Source: Candidatus Thalassarchaeaceae archaeon (GTDB taxonomy: Archaea; Thermoplasmatota; Poseidoniia; Poseidoniales; Thalassarchaeaceae). Taken from it: a DNA stretch of 32,000 nucleotides. This document shows, piece after piece, positions 16,984 through 31,161 of the stretch. A program made the position numbers and the translations under genes. Below the pieces are notes generated by a model. It made no database searches. It saw only the letters and a program-made list of their open reading frames with translations, and was not told the origin of the DNA. Within the stretch, counting starts at the first letter, position 1. Every line of letters starts with the position of its first letter. The stretch is from assembly GCA_045568075.1 (NCBI GenBank), contig JBJLBP010000001.1, positions 870,001 through 902,000 on the forward strand, written 5' to 3'.

Positions 16984-17295
16984 ATGCCCAAACCCAGCAA
17001 GGCTGCTCGCGGGAAGCACCGATGGGTCGGAGTAGAGGTAAATGGTGCGGGACTGAGTCGTGCTGAGTGCGAGTCGAGAATAGGAGAGATTCTGAGTCCA
17101 ATTAGTTTCAGAATGTTTGACATGCGTAGCGATTCTGAATCTGCTCTACTCATTCTCAAGGTCGGGCTTGATGATTACGATTCTACTAGAGAAATTATGG
17201 AAGCTACCGAAGGTGTCTGCACCAAAACTTCCTCGGGTAAGATTAGGCTTGTACGCGAGCGACTGGGACTGCCTCGTCCGGTCAGAAAGAGATGA
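16984..17295 (+). CDS. rnp2: RNase P protein component 2 (Pop5 homologue)
   Basis: 103 aa. RGKHRWVGVEV parallels archaeal Pop5 R.KKRYIAFKV, and the C-terminal TSSGKIRLVRERL parallels VSGTIKRLKRKF. The call is based on remembered family motifs only. Confidence 0.6.
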   Translation: MPKPSKAARGKHRWVGVEVNGAGLSRAECESRIGEILSPISFRMFDMRSDSESALLILKVGLDDYDSTREIMEATEGVCTKTSSGKIRLVRERLGLPRPVRKR

Positions 17296-18667
17296 CTAAT
17301 TCTCCGACATCGTCGATTACAAGTAATTCTGAACCTGCTATCGCGACAAGTGCACCCGATTCCTTGAGCCCTGCTATTCTCACAGGTACGTCTGTACGGG
17401 TGGCTTCTGCCCCCCTAGACAGGGCTCTTGACATCGCAGTCCAGGAGCCTCTTTGCAATTGAGAAGATTCAGGGGTTGCGATAGGAACTGAATCATCGAG
17501 GATGGAAGCGATTGCCGCGTCAACGATTTCGAAAGCACTTACGTCATCAATATCTCCAATGGATTCAGTCCAACCTGCTACATCTCGACCTTCGACATTT
17601 GAGGGATTTTGATTCAGTCCAATTCCAATTCTTACACGGCCGTCTAGTGAACTTGATTCGACGAGAATCCCGCCAGCCTTCCGGCCGTCAATCAATAGAT
17701 CATTCGGCCACTTCAAATCCATTGAGAGAGCATCGGCCACGCACGCACCAACAGCGACCTGCAATAGGCCAGGAGATCGATCGTTCAATACCGATTGATT
17801 AAGACTCCAAGTTGCAGTCAAATCACCTTCTTTGGATTGCCATTGTGAGCCCCTTCGCCCCCGTCCCGATTGTTGAATTCCTGCTCTGATTCTTTGCCAT
17901 CCTTCATTGGGTAACGCGCGTGCATCATCCATTGTTGAATCAGACTCTTCGAGATAATGTGCTTCTGCAGTATCCCCTGGTCTCCAAAAGGCCACAGTCT
18001 CAAGTGTCTCATCACCGACTCTCTCTATTGCTAGACGACGAGAGGACCATCCTTTGAGACTCCAATCAATCGGCGAACTCAGTGATTCGGGGTCTGTTCG
18101 GAAAAGTAGAATGAAAGTCTTGTTTCGAGATTCCCCCTCACTCAATGACTCCAGTAGAATATGAGACCAACCTAGTTCTCCTTCGTCGCCCAGAGCAGCT
18201 TCCTCCAAAGGGCCAAGACTCACCCCTTCCTCAACGGCAGGGTCGAGATATGGTAAATTCCAAACTATGACGTCGGCGTCGGAAGGGATCTTCCAACCTT
18301 CTTCTCCGACACCGCTCTCCTCAACGCGAATAGATTCGGTAACTCCGGCCTCGATAGCGTTGCCTCGGGTCGCTGCAACCGCGATAGGATTGATGTCGAA
18401 AGCAGATACTTTCCATCCAACGAGAGCCATAGCGATTGAGATTGCTCCTGAGCCGCAACCAACTTCGACGAGATGCCCTGGAGGGCACGTCAAACGGGCC
18501 AGACCATCTAACATCAAGCGAGTGTCTCGGCGAGGGGGGTAAACAGTCGGAGGAATCGTGAGTTCGATCACCTCACCGGACGGAATTTTGAATCCTACAG
18601 CCATACTTCGACCGGTAGATGAAATCTCAATCTCCCGTTCAATTTTATCGAATCCCAGCGTAATCAC
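17282..18667 (-). CDS. Fusion: HemK/Mtq2-like SAM methyltransferase (N-terminal) + biotin--protein ligase BirA (C-terminal)
   Basis: The N-terminal half has VYPPRRDTRLM, motif I VEVGCGSGAISIA, and motif IV VIVWNLPYLDP (an NPPY variant). The C-terminal half has QQSGRGRRGSQWQS (GRGRxGRxW), LKWPNDLLIDGRKAGGILVES, and a short SH3-like tail. Confidence 0.85.
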   Translation of the reverse strand: MITLGFDKIEREIEISSTGRSMAVGFKIPSGEVIELTIPPTVYPPRRDTRLMLDGLARLTCPPGHLVEVGCGSGAISIAMALVGWKVSAFDINPIAVAATRGNAIEAGVTESIRVEESGVGEEGWKIPSDADVIVWNLPYLDPAVEEGVSLGPLEEAALGDEGELGWSHILLESLSEGESRNKTFILLFRTDPESLSSPIDWSLKGWSSRRLAIERVGDETLETVAFWRPGDTAEAHYLEESDSTMDDARALPNEGWQRIRAGIQQSGRGRRGSQWQSKEGDLTATWSLNQSVLNDRSPGLLQVAVGACVADALSMDLKWPNDLLIDGRKAGGILVESSSLDGRVRIGIGLNQNPSNVEGRDVAGWTESIGDIDDVSAFEIVDAAIASILDDSVPIATPESSQLQRGSWTAMSRALSRGAEATRTDVPVRIAGLKESGALVAIAGSELLVIDDVGELVISF

Positions 18668-18823: not shown

Positions 18824-18897
18824 GGGCCTGTAGCTTAGTCAGGTAGAGCGCCGGGCTTTTAACCCGGTGGCCGGGGGTTCGAATCCCCCCAGGCCCG
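18824..18897 (+). tRNA. tRNA-Lys (anticodon UUU)
   Basis: Cloverleaf read by hand: acceptor GGGCCTG/CAGGCCC, D arm GCTT-AGTCAGGTA-GAGC, anticodon stem CCGGG/CCCGG with loop CTTTTAA, T arm GGGGG-TTCGAAT-CCCCC, discriminator G. No intron, and no encoded CCA. Confidence 0.92.
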
Positions 18898-18921
18898 CCT
18901 GACAAAGCCTCAGGCTAGCGG

Positions 18922-18926
18922 TTTTT
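18922..18926 (+). terminator. T5 tract downstream of tRNA-Lys
   Basis: GCGGTTTTTCTGG lies 25 nt after the tRNA 3' end and 22 nt before the rpoH ATG. It may be an oligo-T terminator or pause site. Confidence 0.3.
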
Positions 18927-18947
18927 CTGGGTCCGGGGGCGGCGCGA

Positions 18948-19535
18948 ATGGCAGTAAAGAGTTCAACAAAGAAGCGTCTAGTCGAGTTGGGTATTGATAC
19001 CGATCATGCTCACAAACTCGCCGACGACGCAAACATGGATGCAATCAAGCGAATGACAGTTGAGGAGGTCGCAGAGAAAACCGGCCTCTCAACGAGTGAT
19101 GCGACACTCGAGAATATCATGTCCATCATCAGGGAACACAACACTTCCCGTCGCCGAAGCCGTTCCGGCCGAATTACAATTTCTCGCAAGGCACTCGAAC
19201 TCATGGACATCCCTCAGGGTGATGCCCGGTTCAACGTCCTCAACCACTTCCTTGTCCCTCACCATGAATTGGTGGATTCCGACAAAGAAGCAGAATCTCT
19301 CGCTCCTTGGGGACTTGAAGTCCCAGATAACGAGGGAGGCACTCGTATCGCCAAGGAATTACTCCCCAAGATCCTCATCACTGACCCAGCAGTCCAAGCC
19401 ATCAAGGAACATATCGAGGCAGAAGCCGACGATCTTCCTGCTGGCTGGCTGACAAATAGAATTGTCAGAGTGGTGCGATATAGCCGAGCAGCTGGCTCAA
19501 GCACTGCTTACCGACTAATCGTGGAGAGCGCTTGA
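18948..19535 (+). CDS. rpoH: RNA polymerase subunit H (Rpo5) with a ~90-aa N-terminal extension
   Basis: The C-terminal ~100 aa carry RpoH hallmarks: HFLVPHHELV, LPKILITDPAVQAI, VVRYSRAAGSSTAYRLIV. The N-terminal extension has an HhH-like segment, KKRLVELGIDTDHAHKLADD. Confidence 0.88.
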   Translation: MAVKSSTKKRLVELGIDTDHAHKLADDANMDAIKRMTVEEVAEKTGLSTSDATLENIMSIIREHNTSRRRSRSGRITISRKALELMDIPQGDARFNVLNHFLVPHHELVDSDKEAESLAPWGLEVPDNEGGTRIAKELLPKILITDPAVQAIKEHIEAEADDLPAGWLTNRIVRVVRYSRAAGSSTAYRLIVESA

Positions 19536-19548
19536 AGGAGTTGAGAAA

Positions 19549-22500
19549 ATGAAGGAAATTGTAGAGAGTTACTTTCAGCAAAGAAGTCTGGTCAATCACC
19601 AGCTCGCATCGTATAACGACTGTATTCCATCCACCGATGGAAAACTAAGCCGGATGGAGAAAATCGTCCGTAACATTCGCATCGGAACCGACGAACCCGT
19701 CGAGGATGATGATGGTGGAATCATCAAACTCGACGTTCTAGACCATGAGATTGTCATCCGAATGAAGAATATTCATCTTGGCCGCCCAACCATTCGTGAG
19801 GCCAATGGAGCCGAGCATCCAGCAACTCCGCTGGAGTGTCGTCTTCGTAAGTTGACTTACTATTCCCCAGTCTACCTTGATTTCCAGATAATCCGTGACG
19901 ACAAGCCAGTCCCGGATATCGAAGATCGCGTCCACGTCGGTAACCTGCCGATCATGGTTCGCTCTGGTCAGTGCAACCTGCACTCCGACCACATCTCTCA
20001 TCTCTGTGGAGATGCAGACCGCAAACTCTCGCCTCAGACTTCGGCTGAGGACGCAGACCGTTTGACTGAACTCTTGCGCCGAGCCGGTGAGGACCCTTTG
20101 GATCCAGGCGGCTATTTCATCATTAACGGAACCGAGCGTGTCCTCATCTCGATGGAAGATCTAGCACCTAACCGAGTTACTGTTGAGAAGAACAAGAAGT
20201 ACGCTCACGAGACTGAAGTCGCCAAGATCTTCTCACAGAAAGACGGTGTTCGCAAGCCTCTCAATATTGAGAAGCGCCGCGATGGAATGCTGATGGTTAA
20301 GATCCCAAGTGCGGGAACTACGCCAATCCCAGTCGTTCTACTAATGCGTTCTCTAGGTATGGAGAACGACAAGGAGATTTTCACCGCGATTGCAGGTCCT
20401 GCAGAGGCGATGAAGTACACAGTTGCCAACCTCAATGAGGTCAAGGACAACGAAGAATACAATGTCGAAACCTCTGAAGAGGCTCTACAGTGGCTCGAGA
20501 AGAAGTTCGCTGCTGGTCAGCAGAAGGAATACCGTGAGGCTCGAATCCAGAACCTCCTCGACAAGGAACTTCTTCCTCACCTCGGTTCTGGACCCGAGTA
20601 TCGCGAGAAGAAGGCAGTTTTCCTCGGACGCATCGTCCGCCAAGTCCTTGAGATGGCTATCACTAACCGTGATCCTAACGACAAGGACCACTACGCAAAC
20701 AAGCGTGTTCGTCTTGCTGGAGATCTAGTCGAGGACCTTTTCCGCGTCAGTCTACAACAACTCGCTCGTGACCTCAAGTACCAACTAGAGCGTCATCACA
20801 ACCGCAAGCGCGAGTTGCGAATCAACGCCTGCCTACGACCTGACGTGCTGACACAGAAGATCATGCACGCGCTTGCAACTGGCAACTGGGTTGGTGGCCG
20901 ATCGGGTGTCAGTCAACTACTCGACCGTACTACTTACCTCGCAGCACTATCACATATGCGTCGCGTGACCAGCCCACTGGTCCGCAGCCAACCTCACTTC
21001 GAGGCTCGTGACCTGCACCCTACACATTGGGGCCGACTCTGTCCAAACGAGACTCCTGAGGGTCAGAACTGCGGTCTTGTGAAGAACGCTGCTCAGATGA
21101 TCGACGTCTCCGAAGAAGTCCGCGAAGACGACGTCAAGGAACTCCTTCGAGAAGCTGGTGTTGACTCATCTCCATCTGGCTGGGCCGAGGGATCTCGTGT
21201 CCACGTAAACGGAGACATCTTCGGTCTGCACAAGAATGCGGCGAAGTTGGTTAACCAATTCAAGCGCCGACGCCGACAAGGAAGGATCCGATCAGAGGTC
21301 AGTATCCGCCACGATGGTGCGAACCGTGACATTTTCATCAACACCGATCGAGGGCGAATCCTGCGCCCTCTCCTCGTCCTTGACGATGGTGATCTGACAC
21401 TCTCAAAGGAACACCTAGAGTTCATTCGCTCCGGCGAATGGACCTTCAACGATCTCGTCGCAAACGGAGTCGTTGAGTGGGTCGACGCTGAAGAGGAAGA
21501 AGACCTTCTTGTCGCTCCTCGTCCATTCGATCTACCTATGGAATCGCCAGAACACGGTCGACCAATCAATCCAGCAGCAGTGGAATGGGTTAACCTTGGA
21601 CAAGAACAAATCACTGAGGCTGAACTCCGCGTCGAGGTCAAGTTGCCTAATGGTGACGCGGTTTTCGAAGAGTTCAGTGTTCCTCTAAAGTACTACCAAG
21701 AGGATGTTGATACTCTCCGCCGAAAGCAGAAGAGGAACAATACTGTCCTCGTCTACACGCACGTGGAGATTGATCCGCAACTCATTCTCGGAGTTTGTGC
21801 ATCCCTTGTTCCATATCCGGAACACAATTCCACGCCGAGAGTTACCGGTGGTACTGCGATGGTCAAGCAGAGCCTTGGCCTACCGAGCGCCAATTACCGT
21901 TTGCGCCCTGACACACGTATGCACGTAATGCATTATCCTCAGCAGTCGATTGTCGGTACTCGTTCGATGAAGACAACGAACTTCGCTCAGCGCCCTGGTG
22001 GCCAGAATTTCGTGGTCGCGATTCTCAGCCACCACGGCTACAACATGCAAGACGCCGTGGTCATTAACCGAGCTGCAGTTGAGCGTTCGCTCGCCCGCTC
22101 ATCCTTCATCCGCACATATAATGCTGAAAACAAGCAATTCCCAGGCGGCCAAAAGGAGCAAATCGAGATTCCAGGAACAGGACTTGACGAGGTCAAGGGA
22201 ATGAAGTCATGGGAGAAATATACTCACCTCGAGCGTGACGGTCTCCCTACTCCTGAGACTCACCTCTCAAGCGTAGGCGGAGAGACTAGCGTGCTTGTTG
22301 GTAAGACCAGTCCTCCTCGATTCCTTGAGGAGTCACATGGTCACTTCCTGCAAGCTCAGGAACGCCGTGAGTCCTCTATGATGGTCAGAAACGGGGAGTC
22401 TGGCTGGGTCGACAATGTGTTTGTCACCGAGTCGCTCGATTCTGGTCTTCTTTGCCGCATTTCTCTGCGAACTGAAAAGATCCCTGAACTTGGTGACAAA

Positions 22501-23235
22501 TTCGCCAGTCGTCACGGACAGAAGGGTATCATTGGTCGCCTTGTCGACGAGAAGGATATGCCATTCACCACCGATGGAATCGTCCCTGATCTCATCATCA
22601 ATCCTCACGCGATTCCATCGCGAATGACCGTCGCCCACGTCCTTGAGATGATCGGCGGCAAGGTCGGAGCAATGGAAGGACGCAAAATCGATGGTACTGC
22701 CTTTAGTGGAGAGAAGGAAGAGTCACTCCGCTCAGGCTTGCTGCGAAATGGTCTCGCGCACACTGGTCGTGAACCGATGGTCAGTGGGGAGACTGGAGAG
22801 GCATTCACTGCTGACATCTTCACTGGAGTCATCTTCTACCAGCGATTGCATCACTTGGTGAGCAGTAAGTTGCACGCCCGCAGTCGCGGTCGTGTGCAGA
22901 TTCTCACCCGTCAACCAACCGAGGGTCGTGCACGACAGGGTGGTCTACGATTCGGAGAAATGGAGCGCGATTGTCTGATTGCGCACGGAGCCTCGATGGT
23001 CATCAAGGACAGACTACTTGACGAGTCTGACGGCTGGCCACTGATGGTGTGTAACAACAGTGGTTGTGGTCACATCGCTTACTATGATTGGAAGAGGCGC
23101 ACTCCAGTGTGCCCTGTATGTGGTGACCGAGCAGATGTGCATTCGGTACAGACTTCCTACGCATTCAAGCTACTTCTGGACGAAATGAAAAGTCTTGGAG
23201 TTGCTATGCGACTTGAACTGGAGGACCAAAGATGA
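19549..23235 (+). CDS. rpoB: RNA polymerase subunit B (unsplit Rpo2)
   Basis: 1228 aa. Motifs present: GYFIINGTERVLIS, PNETPEGQNCGLVKNA, SRHGQKGI, GEMERDCLIAHGA, and the C-terminal zinc motif CNNSGCG...CPVCG. AAGGAG lies upstream of the ATG. Confidence 0.97.
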   Translation: MKEIVESYFQQRSLVNHQLASYNDCIPSTDGKLSRMEKIVRNIRIGTDEPVEDDDGGIIKLDVLDHEIVIRMKNIHLGRPTIREANGAEHPATPLECRLRKLTYYSPVYLDFQIIRDDKPVPDIEDRVHVGNLPIMVRSGQCNLHSDHISHLCGDADRKLSPQTSAEDADRLTELLRRAGEDPLDPGGYFIINGTERVLISMEDLAPNRVTVEKNKKYAHETEVAKIFSQKDGVRKPLNIEKRRDGMLMVKIPSAGTTPIPVVLLMRSLGMENDKEIFTAIAGPAEAMKYTVANLNEVKDNEEYNVETSEEALQWLEKKFAAGQQKEYREARIQNLLDKELLPHLGSGPEYREKKAVFLGRIVRQVLEMAITNRDPNDKDHYANKRVRLAGDLVEDLFRVSLQQLARDLKYQLERHHNRKRELRINACLRPDVLTQKIMHALATGNWVGGRSGVSQLLDRTTYLAALSHMRRVTSPLVRSQPHFEARDLHPTHWGRLCPNETPEGQNCGLVKNAAQMIDVSEEVREDDVKELLREAGVDSSPSGWAEGSRVHVNGDIFGLHKNAAKLVNQFKRRRRQGRIRSEVSIRHDGANRDIFINTDRGRILRPLLVLDDGDLTLSKEHLEFIRSGEWTFNDLVANGVVEWVDAEEEEDLLVAPRPFDLPMESPEHGRPINPAAVEWVNLGQEQITEAELRVEVKLPNGDAVFEEFSVPLKYYQEDVDTLRRKQKRNNTVLVYTHVEIDPQLILGVCASLVPYPEHNSTPRVTGGTAMVKQSLGLPSANYRLRPDTRMHVMHYPQQSIVGTRSMKTTNFAQRPGGQNFVVAILSHHGYNMQDAVVINRAAVERSLARSSFIRTYNAENKQFPGGQKEQIEIPGTGLDEVKGMKSWEKYTHLERDGLPTPETHLSSVGGETSVLVGKTSPPRFLEESHGHFLQAQERRESSMMVRNGESGWVDNVFVTESLDSGLLCRISLRTEKIPELGDKFASRHGQKGIIGRLVDEKDMPFTTDGIVPDLIINPHAIPSRMTVAHVLEMIGGKVGAMEGRKIDGTAFSGEKEESLRSGLLRNGLAHTGREPMVSGETGEAFTADIFTGVIFYQRLHHLVSSKLHARSRGRVQILTRQPTEGRARQGGLRFGEMERDCLIAHGASMVIKDRLLDESDGWPLMVCNNSGCGHIAYYDWKRRTPVCPVCGDRADVHSVQTSYAFKLLLDEMKSLGVAMRLELEDQR

Positions 23236-26200
23236 GCGCCCGTGGAGTAGCCCAAATCCCTAAGAGGATCGATTCGATAAAATTCAGCTTGATGGATCCA
23301 AATGAGATCCGCAAGATGTCGGCCGTCGAGGTGAAGACTGCTGATACCTACAAGGACGACGGTCACGCATACAAGCAAGGTCTGATGGACCCTAAGATGG
23401 GTGTTATCGACCCTGGAATCCGTTGTGAGACCTGCGGGAATAAGCACGACGAGTGCCCGAGTCACTTCGGTCACATCGCACTTGAGCTTCCAGTGATGCA
23501 CATCGGATTCACGATGCTAATCAAGACCTCACTGAAGTCTACCTGCAATGAGTGCAGCCACATTCTGCTACACAGCGCAACCGACACTCACCCCCTCGAC
23601 CCAGAAAAGTCCGAGCAGGACTACTACCGAGACCGAGTATACGACGTAATGCGCAAGCACGGAGTTGGCTCGACTGAATTCAAGAAGATCATCAAGGAAA
23701 TTGAGAAGGAGTGCTCAAGCGCCAAGCGCGCTATATGCATGCACTGTGGGTCTGAGCAAGGCAAGATCATGCTCGACAAGCCTACCACCTTCAAGGAGAA
23801 GAAGTCCGACAAGGGTGAGCACAAGTTGAACGCTCGTGATATCCGTGAGTGGCTCGAGAAGATTCCTGACCAGCACCTGATATTCCTAGGAATGGACAGT
23901 GAATCAAGCCGTCCAGAATGGTCAATCATGAAGGTTCTACCAGTTCCTCCGATTACCGTCCGTCCTTCGATTACACTCGATAGCGGCGATCGTTCCGAGG
24001 ATGACTTGACTCACAAGTTGGTCGACGTCCTGCGAATCAACCAGCGTCTACGTGAGAACCGTGACGCTGGTGCACCACAACTGATTGTCGAGGACTTGTG
24101 GGAATTGCTTCAGTACCACGTCACTACTTACTTCGATAACCAGACTAGTGGAATTCCACCCGCTCGACACCGCTCCGGTCGTCCTCTCAAGACACTTTCA
24201 CAGCGCTTGAAGGGCAAGGAAGGTCGCTTCCGTAGCAACCTTTCCGGAAAGCGCGTGAACTTCTGCGCTCGAACAGTCATCAGCCCAGATCCTAACCTCG
24301 GAATCAACGAGGTTGGTGTACCAGTACACACGGCGAAGGAACTCACAGTTCCAATCCGTGCTACAAGCAGAAATCGCGAACAACTTCGCCGAATGATTCT
24401 GCGCGGACCTGATGTTCACCCTGGTGTGAATTACATCATCCGTGGTGACAACTTCCGCGTTCGAATTACCGATCGAACGAAGTACATTTGGGCTGGATTC
24501 CGATGCCTCAACCCAGACTGCCACTCAGGCAGCGAGGACGAGCCATACGTCGGATACCGACCCGATCTGAATACTGTTCTTCCAGCACCAAACTTCCTTC
24601 CAGGCCTCGAGCTGATGAAGCAGATGCGCCGAACAGAACTCGGAGAATTGGAAGAAATTTGGTCGGTCGACCTTGAATCTACCATCTCGAATCTACGAGG
24701 AGAGGACGCTAACGGTCGACCTCTCGCTGAAGACGATCCAGCTGCAACTATCCACCAGCGTTGGGTCTGGGAGCAGAACCACCCTGACGAATACTTGCCA
24801 GATCACCTCGAAGTGAACTGCCCTCACTGTGGCAGTCCGTCTATCGCAGATGAACAGAGCGAGGAAGTCTACCGCACTGAGGTCGAAGACCGTCTGTCAA
24901 CTTACGATAGGGATGGAAACCCTCGCCCTGGAGTAATTGTCGAGCGCCACCTAATCGATGGCGATGTCGCGATCTTCAACCGGCAGCCATCGTTGCACAG
25001 AATGTCGATGCTTGTCCACGAAGTCCGTGTAATGGCTGGGAAGACGTTCCGCTTCAACCTCGCCGATTGTACTCCATACAACGCTGACTTCGACGGTGAC
25101 GAGATGAACCTCCACGTCATCCAGTCCGAAGAGGCACGCGCTGAGGCCAAGATTCTGATGCGTGTACAGGAGCATATCATCACACCTCGATACGGAGGTG
25201 CAGTCATCGGTGGAATCCACGATCACATTTCTGGTGCATACCTGCTGACTCACGGCGAGAGAATCATCCCGAAGGTTCTCGCCATGGAAATTCTAGGATC
25301 AGTCGCTTGGGATGGAGAACTTCCTGCTGAAACCACCAGTAAGAGTGGAGTCGTTGGATATCTCGGCTCCGATCTTCTGGGTCTTATTGTTCCAGCTGGC
25401 TTCAAACTAGAGTACACAAGCCGAAGCGGCGACCAAGTCAAGGTCACCTCAGACGGAAGCGTCAGTGGCACTATCGACAAGCGCGGAATCGGTGCAGAAG
25501 ATGGACGTCTACTTGATGCGGTTGTACAGACTCATGGTACCAACAGCGGTGCAGAGTTCATCAACCGCATGACAAAGATGACCATCGCGATTTGTACCTC
25601 GAGTGGTTTTACCACAGGAATTGACGACGAAGATCTACCTGCAGTGGCAAAGGCGGAAATCGTAGAAATCAATTCGCGCGCAAGCGAAGAAGTTGATGCT
25701 GAACTCGAAAAGTTCGGTAAAGATGGTCGACGCTATGAGACTCGCCCTGGTCGAACACCAATAGAGACTCTTGAGGAGAATATCCTGCAGATTCTCGATT
25801 CTGCTAAGGCCGAATCAGGTAACGTTGCGAAGACCTACCTTGGAGACGATAACTCGGCTGTCCTCATGGCAACCTCAGGAGCTCGTGGTTCGATGGACAA
25901 CCTAGCTATGATGGCAGGTTCTATCGGTCAGCCAAAGGTTCGTGGAAAGCGCCTTGAGCGTGGTTACCAAGACCGTGTTCTCTCTCACTTCCCTCGTGGA
26001 GTGAAGGGTGCTGAGGAGAAGGGATTCGTCGCTTCTTCCTTCAAGAAGGGACTCGAGCCTACAGAGTTCTTCATGCTCTCAGTCTCCGGACGTGAGTCGC
26101 TTGTCGACACTGCGGTTCGAACCTCAAAGTCAGGTTACATGCAGCGCCGGCTGATCAACGCAATGGACGACCTCAAGGTCGCCAATGATGGGTTTGGATC

Positions 26201-26333
26201 GGTTCGTAACACTGCTGACCGAATCATCCAATTCGAGTATGGTGAGGATGGAATCGACCCAGCGCGTAGTCGCAAGGGTCTACCATTCGACATCACTAAG
26301 GTTCTCGATGACGCCCTCGGGGGTGGTAAGTGA
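23232..26333 (+). CDS. rpoA1: RNA polymerase subunit A' (Rpo1N)
   Basis: 1033 aa. N-terminal zinc motifs [17 protein letters not shown], plus [21 protein letters not shown], and the catalytic [10 protein letters not shown]. The ATG overlaps the rpoB stop (ATGA). The gene contains a ~120-150-aa insertion (see findings). Confidence 0.97.
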
Positions 26334-27910
26334 TGGTAGTCAAGAGTGCAACAAAGAAGAAACTCATGGATCTCGGTATTGCCGAGGAGTTTGCACATCG
26401 TCTAGCTGATGATCGCAAGTGGGACGACGTCAAGGTTCTGTCCGCTGGAGAGATCGCTCAGATTTGTGCTACTGACTCTGGTATGGCTCAGAAAATTACC
26501 GAAGTCATCCAAGGTTCGACCAAGGCTGCTCAGAAGGAGAAGAAAGCAGTGAAGACGATGATCCGTCGACGCGTGGCCTCCCGCCGTCGCAAGAAGAGCG
26601 TTCTACCACTGCAGGCTTACGATGCTGAGGACAAAATCCTTCAAATTCAGCGCGATTTGGATGTCGAAAATCCAATGTTCATCAGTTTGACCGAAGCAGC
26701 CGCTAAGGGTAATATCCGTATCACACCTAAGACCATTAACGACCTCGTCAACGGTCTGCTTTCTCGCGGAAAGAAGAAGCTGACTGCAGCTGAGGCCCGT
26801 AAGGTTGTCAACAGCGCCGAGGCAGACATGAAACTATCACGAGTTGACCCGCACGAAGCGGTTGGAATCACCACCGCTCAATCGATTGGTGAGCCTGGAA
26901 CTCAGATGACAATGCGTACTTTCCACTACGCTGGTGTAGCTACAGTCAACGTCACACAGGGACTGCCTCGTGTAATCGAAATTGTCGATGCTCGAAAGGT
27001 TCCGAAGACACCTACGATGAAGATCTTTCTTGAAGAGAACGACTCAAAGAAGAAGCCTTTGCGCACTGATGAAAAGAAGGTTCAGGCGATTGCTGCTGCT
27101 CTCGAAACCACCACTACTCGTGACATTGCTTCAATCGATGTTGACGTGGCCCAACGCCACCTCAACCTCGATCTAAATATCAAAAATCTACGCCTGAAGA
27201 AGATGACGGGCGCTGAGGTCCGCGACAAGCTACAGCGTGCTCTGCGATTGTTCATCCAAGCAGATGACGATAACCGACCGAAGGTACTCAAGATTATCCC
27301 GGGCGTTACCAAGGAAGAAGATCTAGCTGACCTCGCTAATGATCCACCAACTTACACTGCTCTTCTGCAACTCGAAGACAAGGTGAAGAAGCTGCGATTG
27401 AAGGGTCTTCCAGACATCGTTCGCGCAAACGTGCAAGGCCCGAACCGCGATACTGGTGAGTACTACATCTCAACCATTGGCTCGAATCTTTCAAAGGTCA
27501 GCATGTTTGCTGGAGTAGATCACGGTCGAACCTACACTAACAATGTCAACGAAATTTACGGATATCTTGGAGTCGAGGCAGCTCGACAGGCTATCATCAA
27601 CGAGATGTCGGATACTCTGGAAGGAGCCGGACTCGAAGTCGATGTCCGCCACCTCATCACTGTATCAGATGTCATGACCAGTGAGGGAGAAGTCCGAGCT
27701 ATCGGGCGCCACGGAGTCAGCGGAACCAAGCACAGTATTCTGGCCCGATCGGCTTTCGAAGTCACAGTCAATCACCTGCTTCGTGCTGGTGTGATTGGCG
27801 AGCGCGACCAACTACGTGGTGTCACAGAGAACATCATCGTGGGTCAACCAGTCGCTCTCGGAACTGGAAGCGTAGAACTGTACTATATCCCGGAAGAGGC
27901 TAAGGCTTGA
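26330..27910 (+). CDS. rpoA2: RNA polymerase subunit A'' (Rpo1C) with a ~110-aa N-terminal extension
   Basis: Core motifs [30 protein letters not shown] and [13 protein letters not shown], with a C-terminal [10 protein letters not shown]. The start is GTG 26330 or ATG 26333, overlapping the rpoA' stop. The N-terminus is paralogous to the rpoH N-terminus. Confidence 0.95.
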
Positions 27911-27923
27911 AGGAGGAATTCAT

Positions 27924-28220
27924 ATGGATTTGGCAAGACAATTGAAGCAAGGAATCATTACCGGAACCGTTCTTTTTGGACAGCGACAGACTACCAGCGC
28001 GTGTACAAAGGGCGATGCCCGTCTCGTGCTGGTTGCAGCCAACTGCCCAGTAGACTACATCTCGAATCTGACAGCGAGCCACCCCGATGTACCAGTACAT
28101 CAAGTAACCATGGTCAATCGCCAACTCGGTGCTGCTTGCGCTAAACCATTCCCGGTCAGCGCACTATGCGTCATCGACCCAGGTCAGTCCGACTTGTTGA
28201 CACTCAGCTCAAACCTCTGA
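27924..28220 (+). CDS. rpl30e: Ribosomal protein L30e
   Basis: 98 aa with GDARLVLVAANCP, RQLGAACAKPFPVSALCVIDPGQSD. It sits in the canonical position downstream of rpoA''. Confidence 0.9.
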   Translation: MDLARQLKQGIITGTVLFGQRQTTSACTKGDARLVLVAANCPVDYISNLTASHPDVPVHQVTMVNRQLGAACAKPFPVSALCVIDPGQSDLLTLSSNL

Positions 28221-28306: not shown

Positions 28307-29260
28307 ATGGATGACACCGTCGGGGATCTGTTGAATCTCAGCGGTGTCAGATTGATTGAGGCATCAGGAATCACCGAGACCATTGGTTTCCGTTGTCTCG
28401 GCATTGCTGAGAGAATCCCAGACCTTGAGGAGGAATCCAGTGCCTCAGTCCACGTTTGGCATGTTCCTTCTACCCTGTTGCCGCTGAGTGTGGCTGAGGC
28501 TGAACGCTGGCTCGTCGATGCTCCAAGTGGCCCACATTGGATGCTTAGTGAGAGGGAATTCGAACCGGCTGCAAGTGAATTACTCAATTCCCGATTGAAA
28601 ATCGAATTGTGGGGCCCTGAGACTCTTAGCCGCTGGATTGGGGAGGCTGTTCTGCGAGGAGATTTACAGGTGATTATACCAACTAATTCACCAATCAGCG
28701 AGTTGGAGCAAGAATTGCCCGACTCTAGCCATTCCATCGACAGGGTTGTACTGTCACCAATTGTTGACCTCGATGAATGGCTGATACAGAGAGGGTTGGA
28801 ATTTGTAGAAGCAAATCCAGTTCTCATCGAGGCGAGGATTTGGAGGGTCGATGGAACATTGGTCAGCCCTGAAGGTGTGCGGGAGACTGGTTCTTGGCGC
28901 GTTCTTGAGGATCCTTGGGCAGGTCGTTTGGAATTACATGAAGAGGATGAAGTTCTGAGCAATGCGCCGAAACTCCGTCTCGTCGATGCAAATCCTGAAC
29001 TTTGGTTTGACGAGGATGATCTACGGGTAATGCTCGTTGGCATCCTCGAGACTCGCCGTCAGAAACAGGAGGAAGCCAAAACGGGTAGCACTGTTAGAAG
29101 TACCATGCTGGAACGCTGGGCTTTCGATTCATCTGAAGCTGAGTTGGAGATGATTCCTACTGCTATTCCTGCTTGGATTGTCGACCACGACCGTGGTCGA
29201 GAATTATTGCATTCAAGAAATGGTCGAACCTACGAAATCAATTCCGCTGTAGAGCCATGA
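28307..29260 (+). CDS. Acidic hypothetical protein (317 aa)
   Basis: A long ORF with an acidic, balanced composition like the other proteins here. The competing antisense ORF (28264-29043) is Ser/Arg-rich low complexity. I recognised no family motif. Confidence 0.55.
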   Translation: MDDTVGDLLNLSGVRLIEASGITETIGFRCLGIAERIPDLEEESSASVHVWHVPSTLLPLSVAEAERWLVDAPSGPHWMLSEREFEPAASELLNSRLKIELWGPETLSRWIGEAVLRGDLQVIIPTNSPISELEQELPDSSHSIDRVVLSPIVDLDEWLIQRGLEFVEANPVLIEARIWRVDGTLVSPEGVRETGSWRVLEDPWAGRLELHEEDEVLSNAPKLRLVDANPELWFDEDDLRVMLVGILETRRQKQEEAKTGSTVRSTMLERWAFDSSEAELEMIPTAIPAWIVDHDRGRELLHSRNGRTYEINSAVEP

Positions 29261-30119
29261 TTTCGTCGGTCGATAGAGTGTCACCAGACATCAGGCGTGT
29301 CATCAGGTCAGCAACCTCAACTTGCTCGTCCTCGCCTGCAACTCCCTTATCGCGAGCATCTATTGCCTTCAGTAGGTCTTGCATTGAGTGTATGCATCGA
29401 AGAGAGACAATGTAGCGACTGTGAAGAGAATCTGCTTCCCTCTTGGCACGAGTGACACCCGATTGTGCGGAATTGGCTTTTTCTCGAAGCCTATCGACCT
29501 CTTCTGAGAGTTCTGCCATGAGGTCGTGAGCCTCTTGAGCGTGGGATACAGCGCCCTTTACTTTCTTGTGAGCATCTTCCTGAGACTTTTCGGCATCTCG
29601 CAATTGGATCTTTAGATCGCGGATACCACCGTCAGATTTGCTTTCCTTAGCCTCTCGAAATTCTTGGGCAAGGCGTTTCATCTTCATATTGTATTCACGT
29701 TCTTTCTTTCCAAGAAAGCGCCCCTGTTCGTATAGGCGTTCTAGTCGTTCCATTTCTGTTCGGATTCGACTAGGTGAGCGAGTTTTCTCGGCACGATCTC
29801 TTTGCATTTTTTCCTCGCCTTGCTCTGCGATTTTCTCCCGGAAATCGGTTCGAATAACTCGTAGTTCATCGGTGCGTTCGGACCGAATGTCCTTGAGGTC
29901 ACGAACCTTCTGATTTTCTTCGTCCCGAATCGCTTTTTGATTTTGGACTTCTGTGATAAGTTCCTTGACTTGGCGATTCAGTTCGTTTCTCTCATCGAGG
30001 AGAGTGCGAACTTTCGCATTCCATTGATCACGCTCTTCGCGATTGTAGGTAATCTGCTCCTGAACATCATCGCAGCGAGGCTGCAGGAATCCGCGGATTT
30101 CCTGACTTTCCATCTGCAT
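29238..30119 (-). CDS. Archaeal coiled-coil protein, paralogue 1 (COG1340-like)
   Basis: The protein is almost entirely heptad-like and rich in charged residues. It has an internal MERLERLYEQGRFLGKKEREYNMKMKRL block, paired His-containing helices (AHKKV...HAQEAHDLM), and a C-terminal LMSGDTLSTDEIMALQ motif. The ATG at 30119 has AGGAG 9 nt upstream; alternative starts are 30182 and 30227. Confidence 0.7.
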   Translation of the reverse strand: MQMESQEIRGFLQPRCDDVQEQITYNREERDQWNAKVRTLLDERNELNRQVKELITEVQNQKAIRDEENQKVRDLKDIRSERTDELRVIRTDFREKIAEQGEEKMQRDRAEKTRSPSRIRTEMERLERLYEQGRFLGKKEREYNMKMKRLAQEFREAKESKSDGGIRDLKIQLRDAEKSQEDAHKKVKGAVSHAQEAHDLMAELSEEVDRLREKANSAQSGVTRAKREADSLHSRYIVSLRCIHSMQDLLKAIDARDKGVAGEDEQVEVADLMTRLMSGDTLSTDEIMALQRN

Positions 30120-30198
30120 ACAATCTTGCTCCTGTGGCTTTGCGTCCGACGTTTTCCATATAAGCGCATAGGAATTCTTCATTCGACCCAGAAATCGT

Positions 30199-31161
30199 TC
30201 ATTCTCTCTTACTTGCCGAGCTACCACGTCGTGGTCCGCCTCGAGTTACACCGAGTCTCCGCTTCCCTTTTTTGCCAGAACGACCGCGCTTTTGCGGTTC
30301 ATCTTGTGATTCTGTAGTCTTCGACTCACTGGCTATTCCCAATAGGCTGCCTGAGTCGAGTAGGGCGGTTAGTTCGTTGGTGTTCAGAGAACCGCCCGTA
30401 CTGGCTCGCTCTTTGACATCAGCGAGTCGGATTGGTCGGCCACGTCCGCCAGTGATTTTGAGGTAGGAACGGAGGCGACCGGCTTCTTTCCGCAGATCTT
30501 TTCGCTGTGATTTGATGGAGTCAAGGCGCTTATCGATACCATTGATTCGCCTGCTCATCTTACGGATTTCTCCCCGAGTCACCTTATCGGATTCGATATC
30601 AGTGCCTTCAGTGGCGCCATCTGCAGTTGCTTCCCGAGTCTTTCTTGTAGCGTCGAGTTTTGTGGTCACCTTTCGCAGGTCTTCGATTTGAGAAACATAC
30701 CGTGCGTGAGCCTCCTCGGCTTCGCGCTTACGAACGACTGCTGCTTGTAATTCGAAGAAGCGACGGAATGAGTCGAGTTCACGGTTGAGTGTTGGGACGG
30801 AGGTTAGGTCGTTATCGATGGTGGTGAGTTTGGTGTGAGTTTCATCCATCCACTCTTCAAGAACGGTTGCTGGAGGTGGAATCGATATGTTCACCTTATC
30901 GCGGAGATCTCTGTCTTTGTCGGCCTTTTTCTTGATCTCGTGGAAGCGACGGAGTAGTCCACGACGCTCTGAATCCGCTTCTTCGATTCCACCGACCGCG
31001 GTACGGAGGGATTTGACGAGGTCGACTTGTGATCGTCGATCGTGGCGTAGTGAGTTGAATTCATCCTCTAGTGAACGCAATTGCCGATTCAAATCTGCTG
31101 ATTTTTCCTCAATTTCGTCATGAGGTAGACCCTCAAGATCGTCGAAGAGTCCCTCGCTCAT
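30199..31161 (-). CDS. Archaeal coiled-coil protein, paralogue 2, with a basic C-terminal tail
   Basis: 320 aa with the same overall plan as paralogue 1. The C-terminal GGSLNTNELTALLDSG motif is followed by a basic tail, KRGRSGKKGKRRLGVTRGGPRRG. GGAGGTGA lies 8 nt upstream, and the ATG overlaps the upstream stop (ATGA). Confidence 0.75.
   Translation of the reverse strand: MSEGLFDDLEGLPHDEIEEKSADLNRQLRSLEDEFNSLRHDRRSQVDLVKSLRTAVGGIEEADSERRGLLRRFHEIKKKADKDRDLRDKVNISIPPPATVLEEWMDETHTKLTTIDNDLTSVPTLNRELDSFRRFFELQAAVVRKREAEEAHARYVSQIEDLRKVTTKLDATRKTREATADGATEGTDIESDKVTRGEIRKMSRRINGIDKRLDSIKSQRKDLRKEAGRLRSYLKITGGRGRPIRLADVKERASTGGSLNTNELTALLDSGSLLGIASESKTTESQDEPQKRGRSGKKGKRRLGVTRGGPRRGSSASKRE

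Follow-up and report, generated by a model that had tools for sequence, protein, structure and literature searches.

A paralogous N-terminal domain shared by RpoH and RpoA'' of Marine Group II archaeal RNA polymerase and by mobile-element-like proteins

RpoH and RpoA'', two subunits of the RNA polymerase (RNAP) of Marine Group II (MG-II) archaea, carry paralogous N-terminal domains, hereafter called the module, and relatives of this module occur on proteins of virus- or mobile-element-like contigs. The starting point was a stretch of 32,000 nucleotides (the window) from a Candidatus Thalassarchaeaceae archaeon, positions 870,001 to 902,000 of contig JBJLBP010000001.1 (GCA_045568075.1), whose closest protein homologues are named Candidatus Thalassarchaeaceae or Thalassarchaeum, a lineage of Poseidoniales known as Marine Group IIb. 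According to the list of open reading frames (ORFs) and Pfam matches, its + strand encodes an archaeal RNAP operon of the classic type, rpoH-rpoB-rpoA'-rpoA''-rpl30e, with rpoH as the first gene, the position expected for RpoH. An earlier note made from the sequence alone had suggested that two RNAP subunits of one operon acquired the same module; the paralogy turned out to be significant and conserved across the order, and the presence of a translated, paralogous domain on both subunits is regarded as virtually certain. The module is a lineage-specific RNAP accessory domain, and its link with mobile elements was unanticipated.

RpoH (18948-19535, + strand, 195 aa) consists of three parts. The module occupies residues 1-66 (18948-19145) and is predicted to be a five-helix domain of the (HhH)2/SAM-like type (HhH, helix-hairpin-helix), based on the AlphaFold2 (AF2) model, Foldseek matches, and paralogy to the RpoA'' module. 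It is followed by a basic linker of residues 67-94 (19146-19229), which contains SRRRSRSGRITISRKAL and has no family match, and by the canonical RpoH/Rpb5 C-terminal core of residues 95-195 (19230-19535 with the stop codon). The Pfam model of this core, RNA_pol_Rpb5_C (PF01191), covers residues 95-191 only (E=1.6e-11; 44.2 bits, cut-off 23.5; model positions 1-73), and the NCBIfam RpoH equivalog NF007129, a model of 80 positions, aligns to residues 94-193. About 94 residues are therefore extra, in agreement with the ~90-aa N-terminal extension that had been noticed in the letters. The core itself carries an insertion of ~25 aa relative to these 73-80-position models. The linker, in which RRRSRSGRITISRK is found, has a Lys+Arg fraction of ~0.31 over 38 distinct orthologue sequences, and its predicted local distance difference test (pLDDT) values fall below 50 in the full-length AF2 model. 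No match to the jaw-domain family RNA_pol_Rpb5_N (PF03871) was obtained in RpoH at E<=1 with Pfam, which is in line with the initial impression that the module is unrelated to the Rpb5 jaw domain.

RpoA'' (26333-27910, + strand, 525 residues) shows the same layout of a module, an Arg/Lys-rich linker of about 30 aa, and a canonical subunit. Its module spans residues 1-64 (26333-26524) and was recognized as the paralogue of the RpoH module by BLASTP and hhalign; the basic linker spans residues 65-101 (26525-26635) and ends where the Pfam Rpb1_5 match resumes; residues 102-525 with the stop codon (26636-27910) are the canonical RpoA'', matched by RNA_pol_Rpb1_5 and TIGR02389. The Rpb1_5 model (PF04998) is split between the two subunits at position 66, since positions 1-66 are covered by RpoA' residues 940-1007 and positions 66-265 by RpoA'' residues 102-469 (E=1.1e-47). 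Because the match resumes only at residue 102 of RpoA'', about 100 residues are inserted at the A'/A'' split. In the RpoA'' linker, Lys+Arg amounts to ~0.31 and Asp+Glu to ~0.05 over 142 distinct orthologue sequences. TIGR02389 aligns to residues 134-517 with E=3.6e-123 and 411.2 bits, just below its cut-off of 420.65, and NF007129 reaches only 46.4 bits on RpoH against a cut-off of 83. The NCBIfam equivalog cut-off is the basis on which PGAP names a protein, and these scores probably explain why such subunits, including many RpoH homologues, are labelled 'hypothetical protein' in databases.

The relationship between the two N-termini is strong in pairwise as well as in profile alignment. BLASTP aligned them ungapped with 21/43 identical residues (49%, E=4e-12), and a tblastn search of the window with each module matched the other copy alone (E ~1e-9 to 1e-10). 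An hhalign comparison of 11 H-type with 11 A''-type modules gave a probability of 99.7 and E=1.9e-26 across 63 columns at 37% identity, so the paralogy spans the whole domain of about 63 aa. The kinship that had been described for ~40 aa thus stands as such and has to be extended in length.

Whether these N-termini are translated was assessed by a survey of start codons and ORFs in loci fetched from GTDB genomes and metagenomes. A start codon was present at module position 1 in 192/192 genes: ATG in 152/152 rpoA'' genes, always in a TGATG-type overlap with the rpoA' stop codon, and ATG, TTG, or GTG in 40/40 rpoH genes, preceded by a G-rich Shine-Dalgarno-like run. In the window, the rpoA'' start is accordingly the ATG at 26333, which lies in such an overlap, and not the GTG at 26330 at which the ORF had been taken to begin. 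Module and core formed a single ORF in 40/42 rpoH and 157/158 rpoA'' genes; the two rpoH exceptions were cut at the end of a contig or locus, and the one in rpoA'' was an ORF starting internally. No conserved internal Met before the core was seen in the homologue alignment. Mean column conservation is 0.74 (H) and 0.80 (A'') in the module, against 0.675 in the H core and 0.52 in the canonical N-terminal part of A''. By the Nei-Gojobori method, the proportion of synonymous differences (pS) was 0.68-0.83 and thus saturated, and that of nonsynonymous differences (pN) was 0.07-0.34. Synonymous codons vary among copies, as exemplified by Ser5 (AGT/AGC/TCA), Thr7 (ACA/ACG/ACC/ACT), and Val3 (GTA/GTC/GTT/GTG), and the 30 nt upstream of the starts are unrelated between copies. 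The saturated synonymous sites, the low pN, and the unrelated upstream sequences demonstrate that conservation acts on the protein.

These data also bear on the alternative that the similarity is a nucleotide-level element, such as a shared translation-initiation region, an attachment site, or a recent gene conversion, or that the extensions are artefacts of start calling. It would draw on the 24/27 identical nucleotides after the two ATGs, on a tRNA-Lys gene, a typical integration target, 48 nt 5' of rpoH, and on other starts chosen by some gene callers, which give 203-aa versions. The count of 24/27 was reproduced, although it carries no nucleotide-level signal: it results from amino-acid identity combined with the preference for AAG, which makes up 89% of Lys codons in these genes. 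The freely differing synonymous codons, the unrelated upstream 30 nt, and the saturated pS rule out an attachment site, a shared initiation region, and gene conversion, the profile similarity across 63 residues reaches far beyond the start, and the start codons at module position 1 rule out mis-called starts. The nucleotide-level or artefactual explanation is therefore considered almost certainly wrong, and translation of the extensions is upheld.

The module is widespread in MG-II. More than 100 full-length homologues of the 195-aa RpoH, named Thalassarchaeaceae, keep the extension down to 72% identity. For the peptide MVVKSATK, at least 562 matches were confirmed with one genome per GTDB species; the best 80 of them are rpoA'' loci, among which all titles that name a lineage belong to Poseidoniales/Marine Group II, including Poseidoniaceae, and the others are generic archaeal labels. 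A 216-aa RpoH, with an N-terminus even closer to the A'' type, was found in a Poseidoniales metagenome-assembled genome of the MG-IIa type (L073) and in a cluster with Poseidoniaceae proteins. The module is hence conserved in related genomes of both Poseidoniaceae and Thalassarchaeaceae, and its occurrence on H and A'' in both families places the duplication before the split of MG-IIa and MG-IIb. A HMMER search with the module profile against 1.84 billion representative proteins returned 192 proteins at E<=1e-3; among the 150 matches listed, all except P0130 carry an MG-II-type signature. P0130 (2474 aa, E=2e-26) consists of ~18 near-identical repeats of ~135 aa, each matching by LADxFNFDDVKS alone, and was rejected as spurious. 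The hit lists of the scans were filled by MG-II sequences, and the genome and metagenome scans, dominated by rpoA'', added one further mobile-element locus. Full-text literature searches gave no description of the module.

The AF2 model contains five helices (residues 6-14, 18-27, 30-34, 38-45, and 52-66), the same in two runs, with a pLDDT of 81 for the module alone and ~85 for the module within the full-length model. It shows two helix-hairpin-helix units joined by a connector helix, and in the alignment, helix-turn-helix 1 follows G-[IV]-x4-A-x2-L, the second hairpin G-[LI]-x4-A-x2-I. In a Foldseek search against the PDB, (HhH)2/SAM-like five-helix domains ranked first, the leading (HhH)2 entries reaching TMq 0.59-0.71 over 59-64 aligned columns. 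The top match was FANCM-FAAP24 bound to double-stranded DNA (TMq 0.71, prob 0.98); RadA/Rad51 N-terminal domains followed with TMq 0.53-0.68 and up to 26% identity, and further matches included the C-terminal (HhH)2 domain of UvrC, NusA, and the SAM domains of SARM1 and Ste50. Based on these models, the fold class is likely (HhH)2/SAM-like. No family match for the module was returned by Pfam, NCBIfam, PDB sequence and profile searches, or PHROGs/PADLOC searches of module proteins; a weak S13 match (E=0.09) was treated as noise. The SAP/HeH-like alternative that had been offered found no support for SAP at either level, as there was no Pfam match to SAP, and SAP proteins appeared in the viral fold search only at prob 0.04-0.07.

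Beyond the polymerase, the module is attached to a variety of proteins. Nearly all matches of the representative search have it at residue 1, in proteins of ~120 to 1292 aa, and clustering of the C-terminal parts set the RpoH and RpoA'' types apart from at least 12 families of several members and from numerous singletons, whose C-termini are unrelated. Typing of 53 non-RNAP modules with hidden Markov models placed 39 with A'' and 11 with H. In P0218 (193 aa; locus L173, 2594-3175), the module is fused to one TFIIB cyclin repeat (PF00382; 25.9 bits, which exceeds the cut-off) and stands where TFIIB has its zinc ribbon/B-reader, the normal contact with RNA polymerase; P0189 joins the module to MORN repeats. 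P0225 (851 aa; L086, 1012-3567) combines C2H2 zinc fingers, an internal H-type module, and an ABC-type ATPase whose best matches are the defence components NsnB, PDC-M55A, and AriA; its downstream genes are without known domains. P0152 (186 aa) carries two tandem modules (residues 1-62 and ~95-140) and no other recognizable domain, and could represent a natural 'module pair' on one chain.

The contigs that bear these genes have 41-46% GC compared with 52% in the window. L082 and L087 represent the same element and encode a primase-small-subunit-like protein, a TFB homologue (PF00382, 2e-28; phrog_20431, 6e-49), and a Holliday-junction-resolvase-like nuclease, alongside numerous short ORFs that run in one direction and have no Pfam match. 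Most of the proteins shared by the two are 95-98% identical and one small ORF ~85%, while the module-bearing protein (L082, 4519-5532; L087, 3585-4574; family P0211/P0227/P0233/P0237) is only 74% identical, suggesting that its C-terminal part is fast-evolving and possibly diversifying. L170 (27.5 kb) carries Mom-like, ERCC4, PCNA, and ribonucleotide reductase genes, a set that resembles the replication module of a virus, and, at the contig end (10001-10848), two module genes in tandem. No protein of L171 has a Pfam match, chromosomal marker genes are absent from the short contigs L084, L085, L169, and L173, and L167/L168 and L172 are too short to show context. Published magroviruses encode TFB, primase, and PCNA (PMC10768690). 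No identification of the module contigs with catalogued viruses was obtained: IMG/VR gave no relatives via the module, family G, or the L170 PCNA, INPHARED gave none by tblastn via P0227, the module, the 1155-aa protein of L170, or PCNA, and the sole match in both sets of searches was the L087 TFB, with distant similarity to TFBs of haloarchaeal and Sulfolobales viruses. Given this lack of a tie to catalogued viruses, the contigs are called virus/mobile-element-like rather than magroviruses.

The C-terminal part of the largest subunit corresponds to A'' in archaea. Rpb5/Rpo5 makes many contacts with this part (PMC13257274), and RpoH lies close to downstream DNA and is important for open-complex formation (PMC2847245). 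Since H would be bound to A'' in the lower jaw beside downstream DNA, the two modules may serve as two accessory heads on tethers. Assisted by the basic, probably flexible linkers and the invariant Lys-rich N-terminal peptide, they would bind duplex DNA irrespective of its sequence, close to the jaw of the polymerase or the entrance of its cleft, and they may form a pair of the kind known from the (HhH)2 domains of ERCC1-XPF and FANCM-FAAP24. Promoter DNA or downstream DNA might thereby be stabilized while the open complex forms and during elongation, a role that Rpo13 has in Sulfolobales, the Rpb5 jaw domain in eukaryotes and, as regards tethered DNA binding in a general sense, the alpha-CTD in bacteria. 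The same domain would have been exchanged with mobile elements and then attached to mobile-element proteins. On the present analysis, the proposal that the modules are tethered DNA-binding heads near the jaw is put forward tentatively, as close to an even call.

Several observations weigh against this proposal. The canonical G-h-G signature is absent, the hairpins reading L-G-I-D/A/S and G-L-S or T-D-S with only the first Gly conserved, and 52 module sequences gave no match to Pfam HhH (PF00633), HHH_5 (PF14520), or the alpha-CTD at E<=1; neither was any HhH-type family or RNA_pol_A_CTD matched by the full-length proteins. A comparison by hhalign with 78 RadA N-terminal domains, all carrying PF14520, was weak (probability 22%, P=1e-3) and allowed two alternative registers, one 14-letter segment being paired with VGPATAEKLREAGY in this ambiguous alignment. 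All Foldseek E-values exceeded 0.5, as expected for a query of 68 residues, and SAM protein-interaction domains scored level with (HhH)2 domains. Moreover, the folded module is slightly acidic (Lys+Arg 0.14 versus Asp+Glu 0.16-0.17), the positive charge residing in the N-terminal peptide and the linker. At the protein level, the first 11 residues, which are Lys-rich, hardly vary among H, A'', and over 50 mobile-element proteins, which suggests that they recognize a particular partner and do not simply contact DNA in a generic way. The helix-hairpin-helix guess of the earlier note is supported at the level of fold and not at that of sequence family.

Part of this evidence would fit a different function, in which the module is a SAM-like handle for protein docking or dimerization: binding would take place between the H and A'' modules or with a putative partner of both, for instance a chromatin protein or a transcription factor, and the mobile-element copies would mimic one module so as to attach effector domains to the polymerase of the host or to contend for that partner. 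The SAM domains of SARM1, Ste50, and EphA5 match like (HhH)2 domains (TMq 0.6-0.7), the top match FANCM-FAAP24 is an obligate (HhH)2 heterodimer, and the overall acidity of the module and the near-invariance of its first residues, kept while synonymous sites vary, point the same way. So do the copying of both module types into mobile-element proteins, the divergence of the L082/L087 module protein, as expected of a protein that interacts with a host, and the presence of a TFIIB repeat and an NsnB/AriA-like defence ATPase among the fusion partners. However, the strong conservation of the host modules, which do not evolve fast, speaks against an arms race at the module surface, and poly-Arg/Lys linkers such as those next to the modules occur more typically where nucleic acids are contacted. 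A docking handle, the main alternative, is possible, if somewhat improbable; the P0218 fusion, which links the module to transcription, fits DNA holding and docking alike, and the two roles are not mutually exclusive. The location of the module almost always at residue 1, in front of unrelated C-terminal parts and with an invariant N-terminal peptide, might instead indicate a tag with a non-transcriptional role shared by host proteins, for example in assembly or solubility, in the control of stability or degradation, or in localization. Such a tag is very unlikely, considering that the module is a complete folded domain of 63 aa and no short signal, that among the sampled host loci it is found on two RNAP subunits only, and that P0225 (residues 93-143) and P0206 (residues 452-505) carry it internally or at the C-terminus.

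Taken more broadly, the module looks like a lineage-specific handle on the transcription machinery that was also taken up by mobile elements. A bolder version, speculative and in itself unlikely, is that an (HhH)2 heterodimer is made up of the H and A'' modules on the polymerase and that MG-II viruses or plasmids have copied one member of it, mostly the A'' type, onto the N-termini of dozens of proteins, including the one with the TFB-like repeat. These proteins might swap into the pair and thereby dock directly onto the host RNAP, in a plug-and-socket takeover of transcription, and a defence ATPase might employ the module for sensing or as a decoy.

Between the two module-bearing genes stand rpoB, which is unsplit (19549-23235), and rpoA' (23232-26333, 1033 aa, with Pfam matches), both on the + strand and without the module, together 19549-26333; an L7Ae/L30e-family gene follows rpoA'' at 27924-28220 (+). 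No third copy of the module was found in the window by tblastn with either module. In RpoA', Pfam Rpb1 domain 1 ends at residue 337 and the best-scoring part of domain 2 covers residues 562-645; a long insertion separates them, and its Cys pairs CLNPDCHSG ... CPHCGSPS suggest, as a sequence motif, an extra zinc ribbon. The gene upstream of rpoH is tRNA-Lys(UUU) (region 18824-18947), which was found on the same strand 47-60 nt 5' of the rpoH start in 23/24 loci, including L073, L089, and L094. In the window and in L001, the spacer contains a T-run and then a G-rich Shine-Dalgarno-like run, with no obvious TATA box. The RNAP operon may be co-transcribed with the tRNA or processed from its transcript, and the tRNA beside rpoH could explain a capture of the rpoH 5' end by integrating elements. 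The divergent neighbour at 17282-18667 (-) encodes a fusion of an N-terminal PrmA/MTS-type methyltransferase with a C-terminal biotin/lipoate protein ligase (BirA-like), and the same fusion occupies the equivalent place in the MG-IIa-type genome (L073, 1194-2666, -). In many archaea, rpl30e is followed by nusA. In the window, a 317-aa ORF without Pfam match (28307-29260, +) comes after rpl30e, followed by a DUF7121 protein (29238-30227, -), and the arrangement 3' of rpl30e is similar in L001.

These results show that a globally abundant archaeal order breaks the rule, given in the literature, that archaeal RpoH is a bare Rpb5 C-terminal domain (PMC3906176). As a second subunit bears the same unannotated domain as well, the outcome is a polymerase that would have two tethered heads. 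Lineage-specific DNA-contacting add-ons, such as Rpo13, the Rpb5 jaw domain, and the alpha-CTD, are considered to modulate the opening of promoters and the dependence on factors; therefore, if the module contacts DNA, it would be a third, independent solution of this kind in archaea. Its occurrence on many mobile-element proteins, on a TFB-like repeat, and on a defence-type ATPase offers a concrete entry point to virus-host conflict over transcription in uncultured marine archaea. With both subunits below the NCBIfam cut-offs and often labelled hypothetical, the module merits a family model of its own.

Among the known systems, Rpo13 lies beside RpoH/Rpo5 with a small helical fold of DNA-binding type and a basic tail that enters the DNA entry channel, and it was proposed to help in bubble formation and to hold downstream DNA (PMC2675907). 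Like the MG-II module, Rpo13 of Sulfolobales and Desulfurococcales is a lineage-specific archaeal RNAP add-on located at RpoH with a basic extension; unlike it, Rpo13 is a separate crenarchaeal subunit with a three-helix helix-turn-helix fold, whereas the module is covalently fused, twice (H and A''), has a five-helix (HhH)2/SAM-like predicted fold, and belongs to a euryarchaeal order. RpoH of archaea is described as free of an N-terminal extension (PMC3906176; PMC2847245). The eukaryotic Rpb5 jaw domain is an N-terminal extension of the same subunit in the lower jaw near downstream DNA. The module differs from it in fold, much smaller size, basic flexible linker, and the second copy on A'', and it has no RNA_pol_Rpb5_N match; the RpoH module was acquired independently of the jaw domain. 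The bacterial alpha-CTD is a small (HhH)2-type domain on a flexible linker, present in two copies per enzyme, that binds DNA and factors. It resembles the module as a helical head tethered flexibly to a polymerase subunit in two copies, but it is C-terminal, sits on the assembly-platform subunit, and acts upstream of the promoter; the MG-II modules are without RNA_pol_A_CTD match, N-terminal, on two different subunits, and on the jaw side. The (HhH)2 domains of RadA/Rad51, ERCC1-XPF, FANCM-FAAP24, and UvrC bind duplex DNA non-specifically, several of them as heterodimers of paralogous domains. They share the five-helix topology and are the best structural matches, although the module lacks G-h-G in its hairpins as well as any Pfam match, and these domains are not components of any RNAP. 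Considering the absence of sequence matches to the jaw and alpha-CTD models and the differences in fold and attachment, the MG-II module is not a member of the Rpo13, Rpb5 jaw, or alpha-CTD families.

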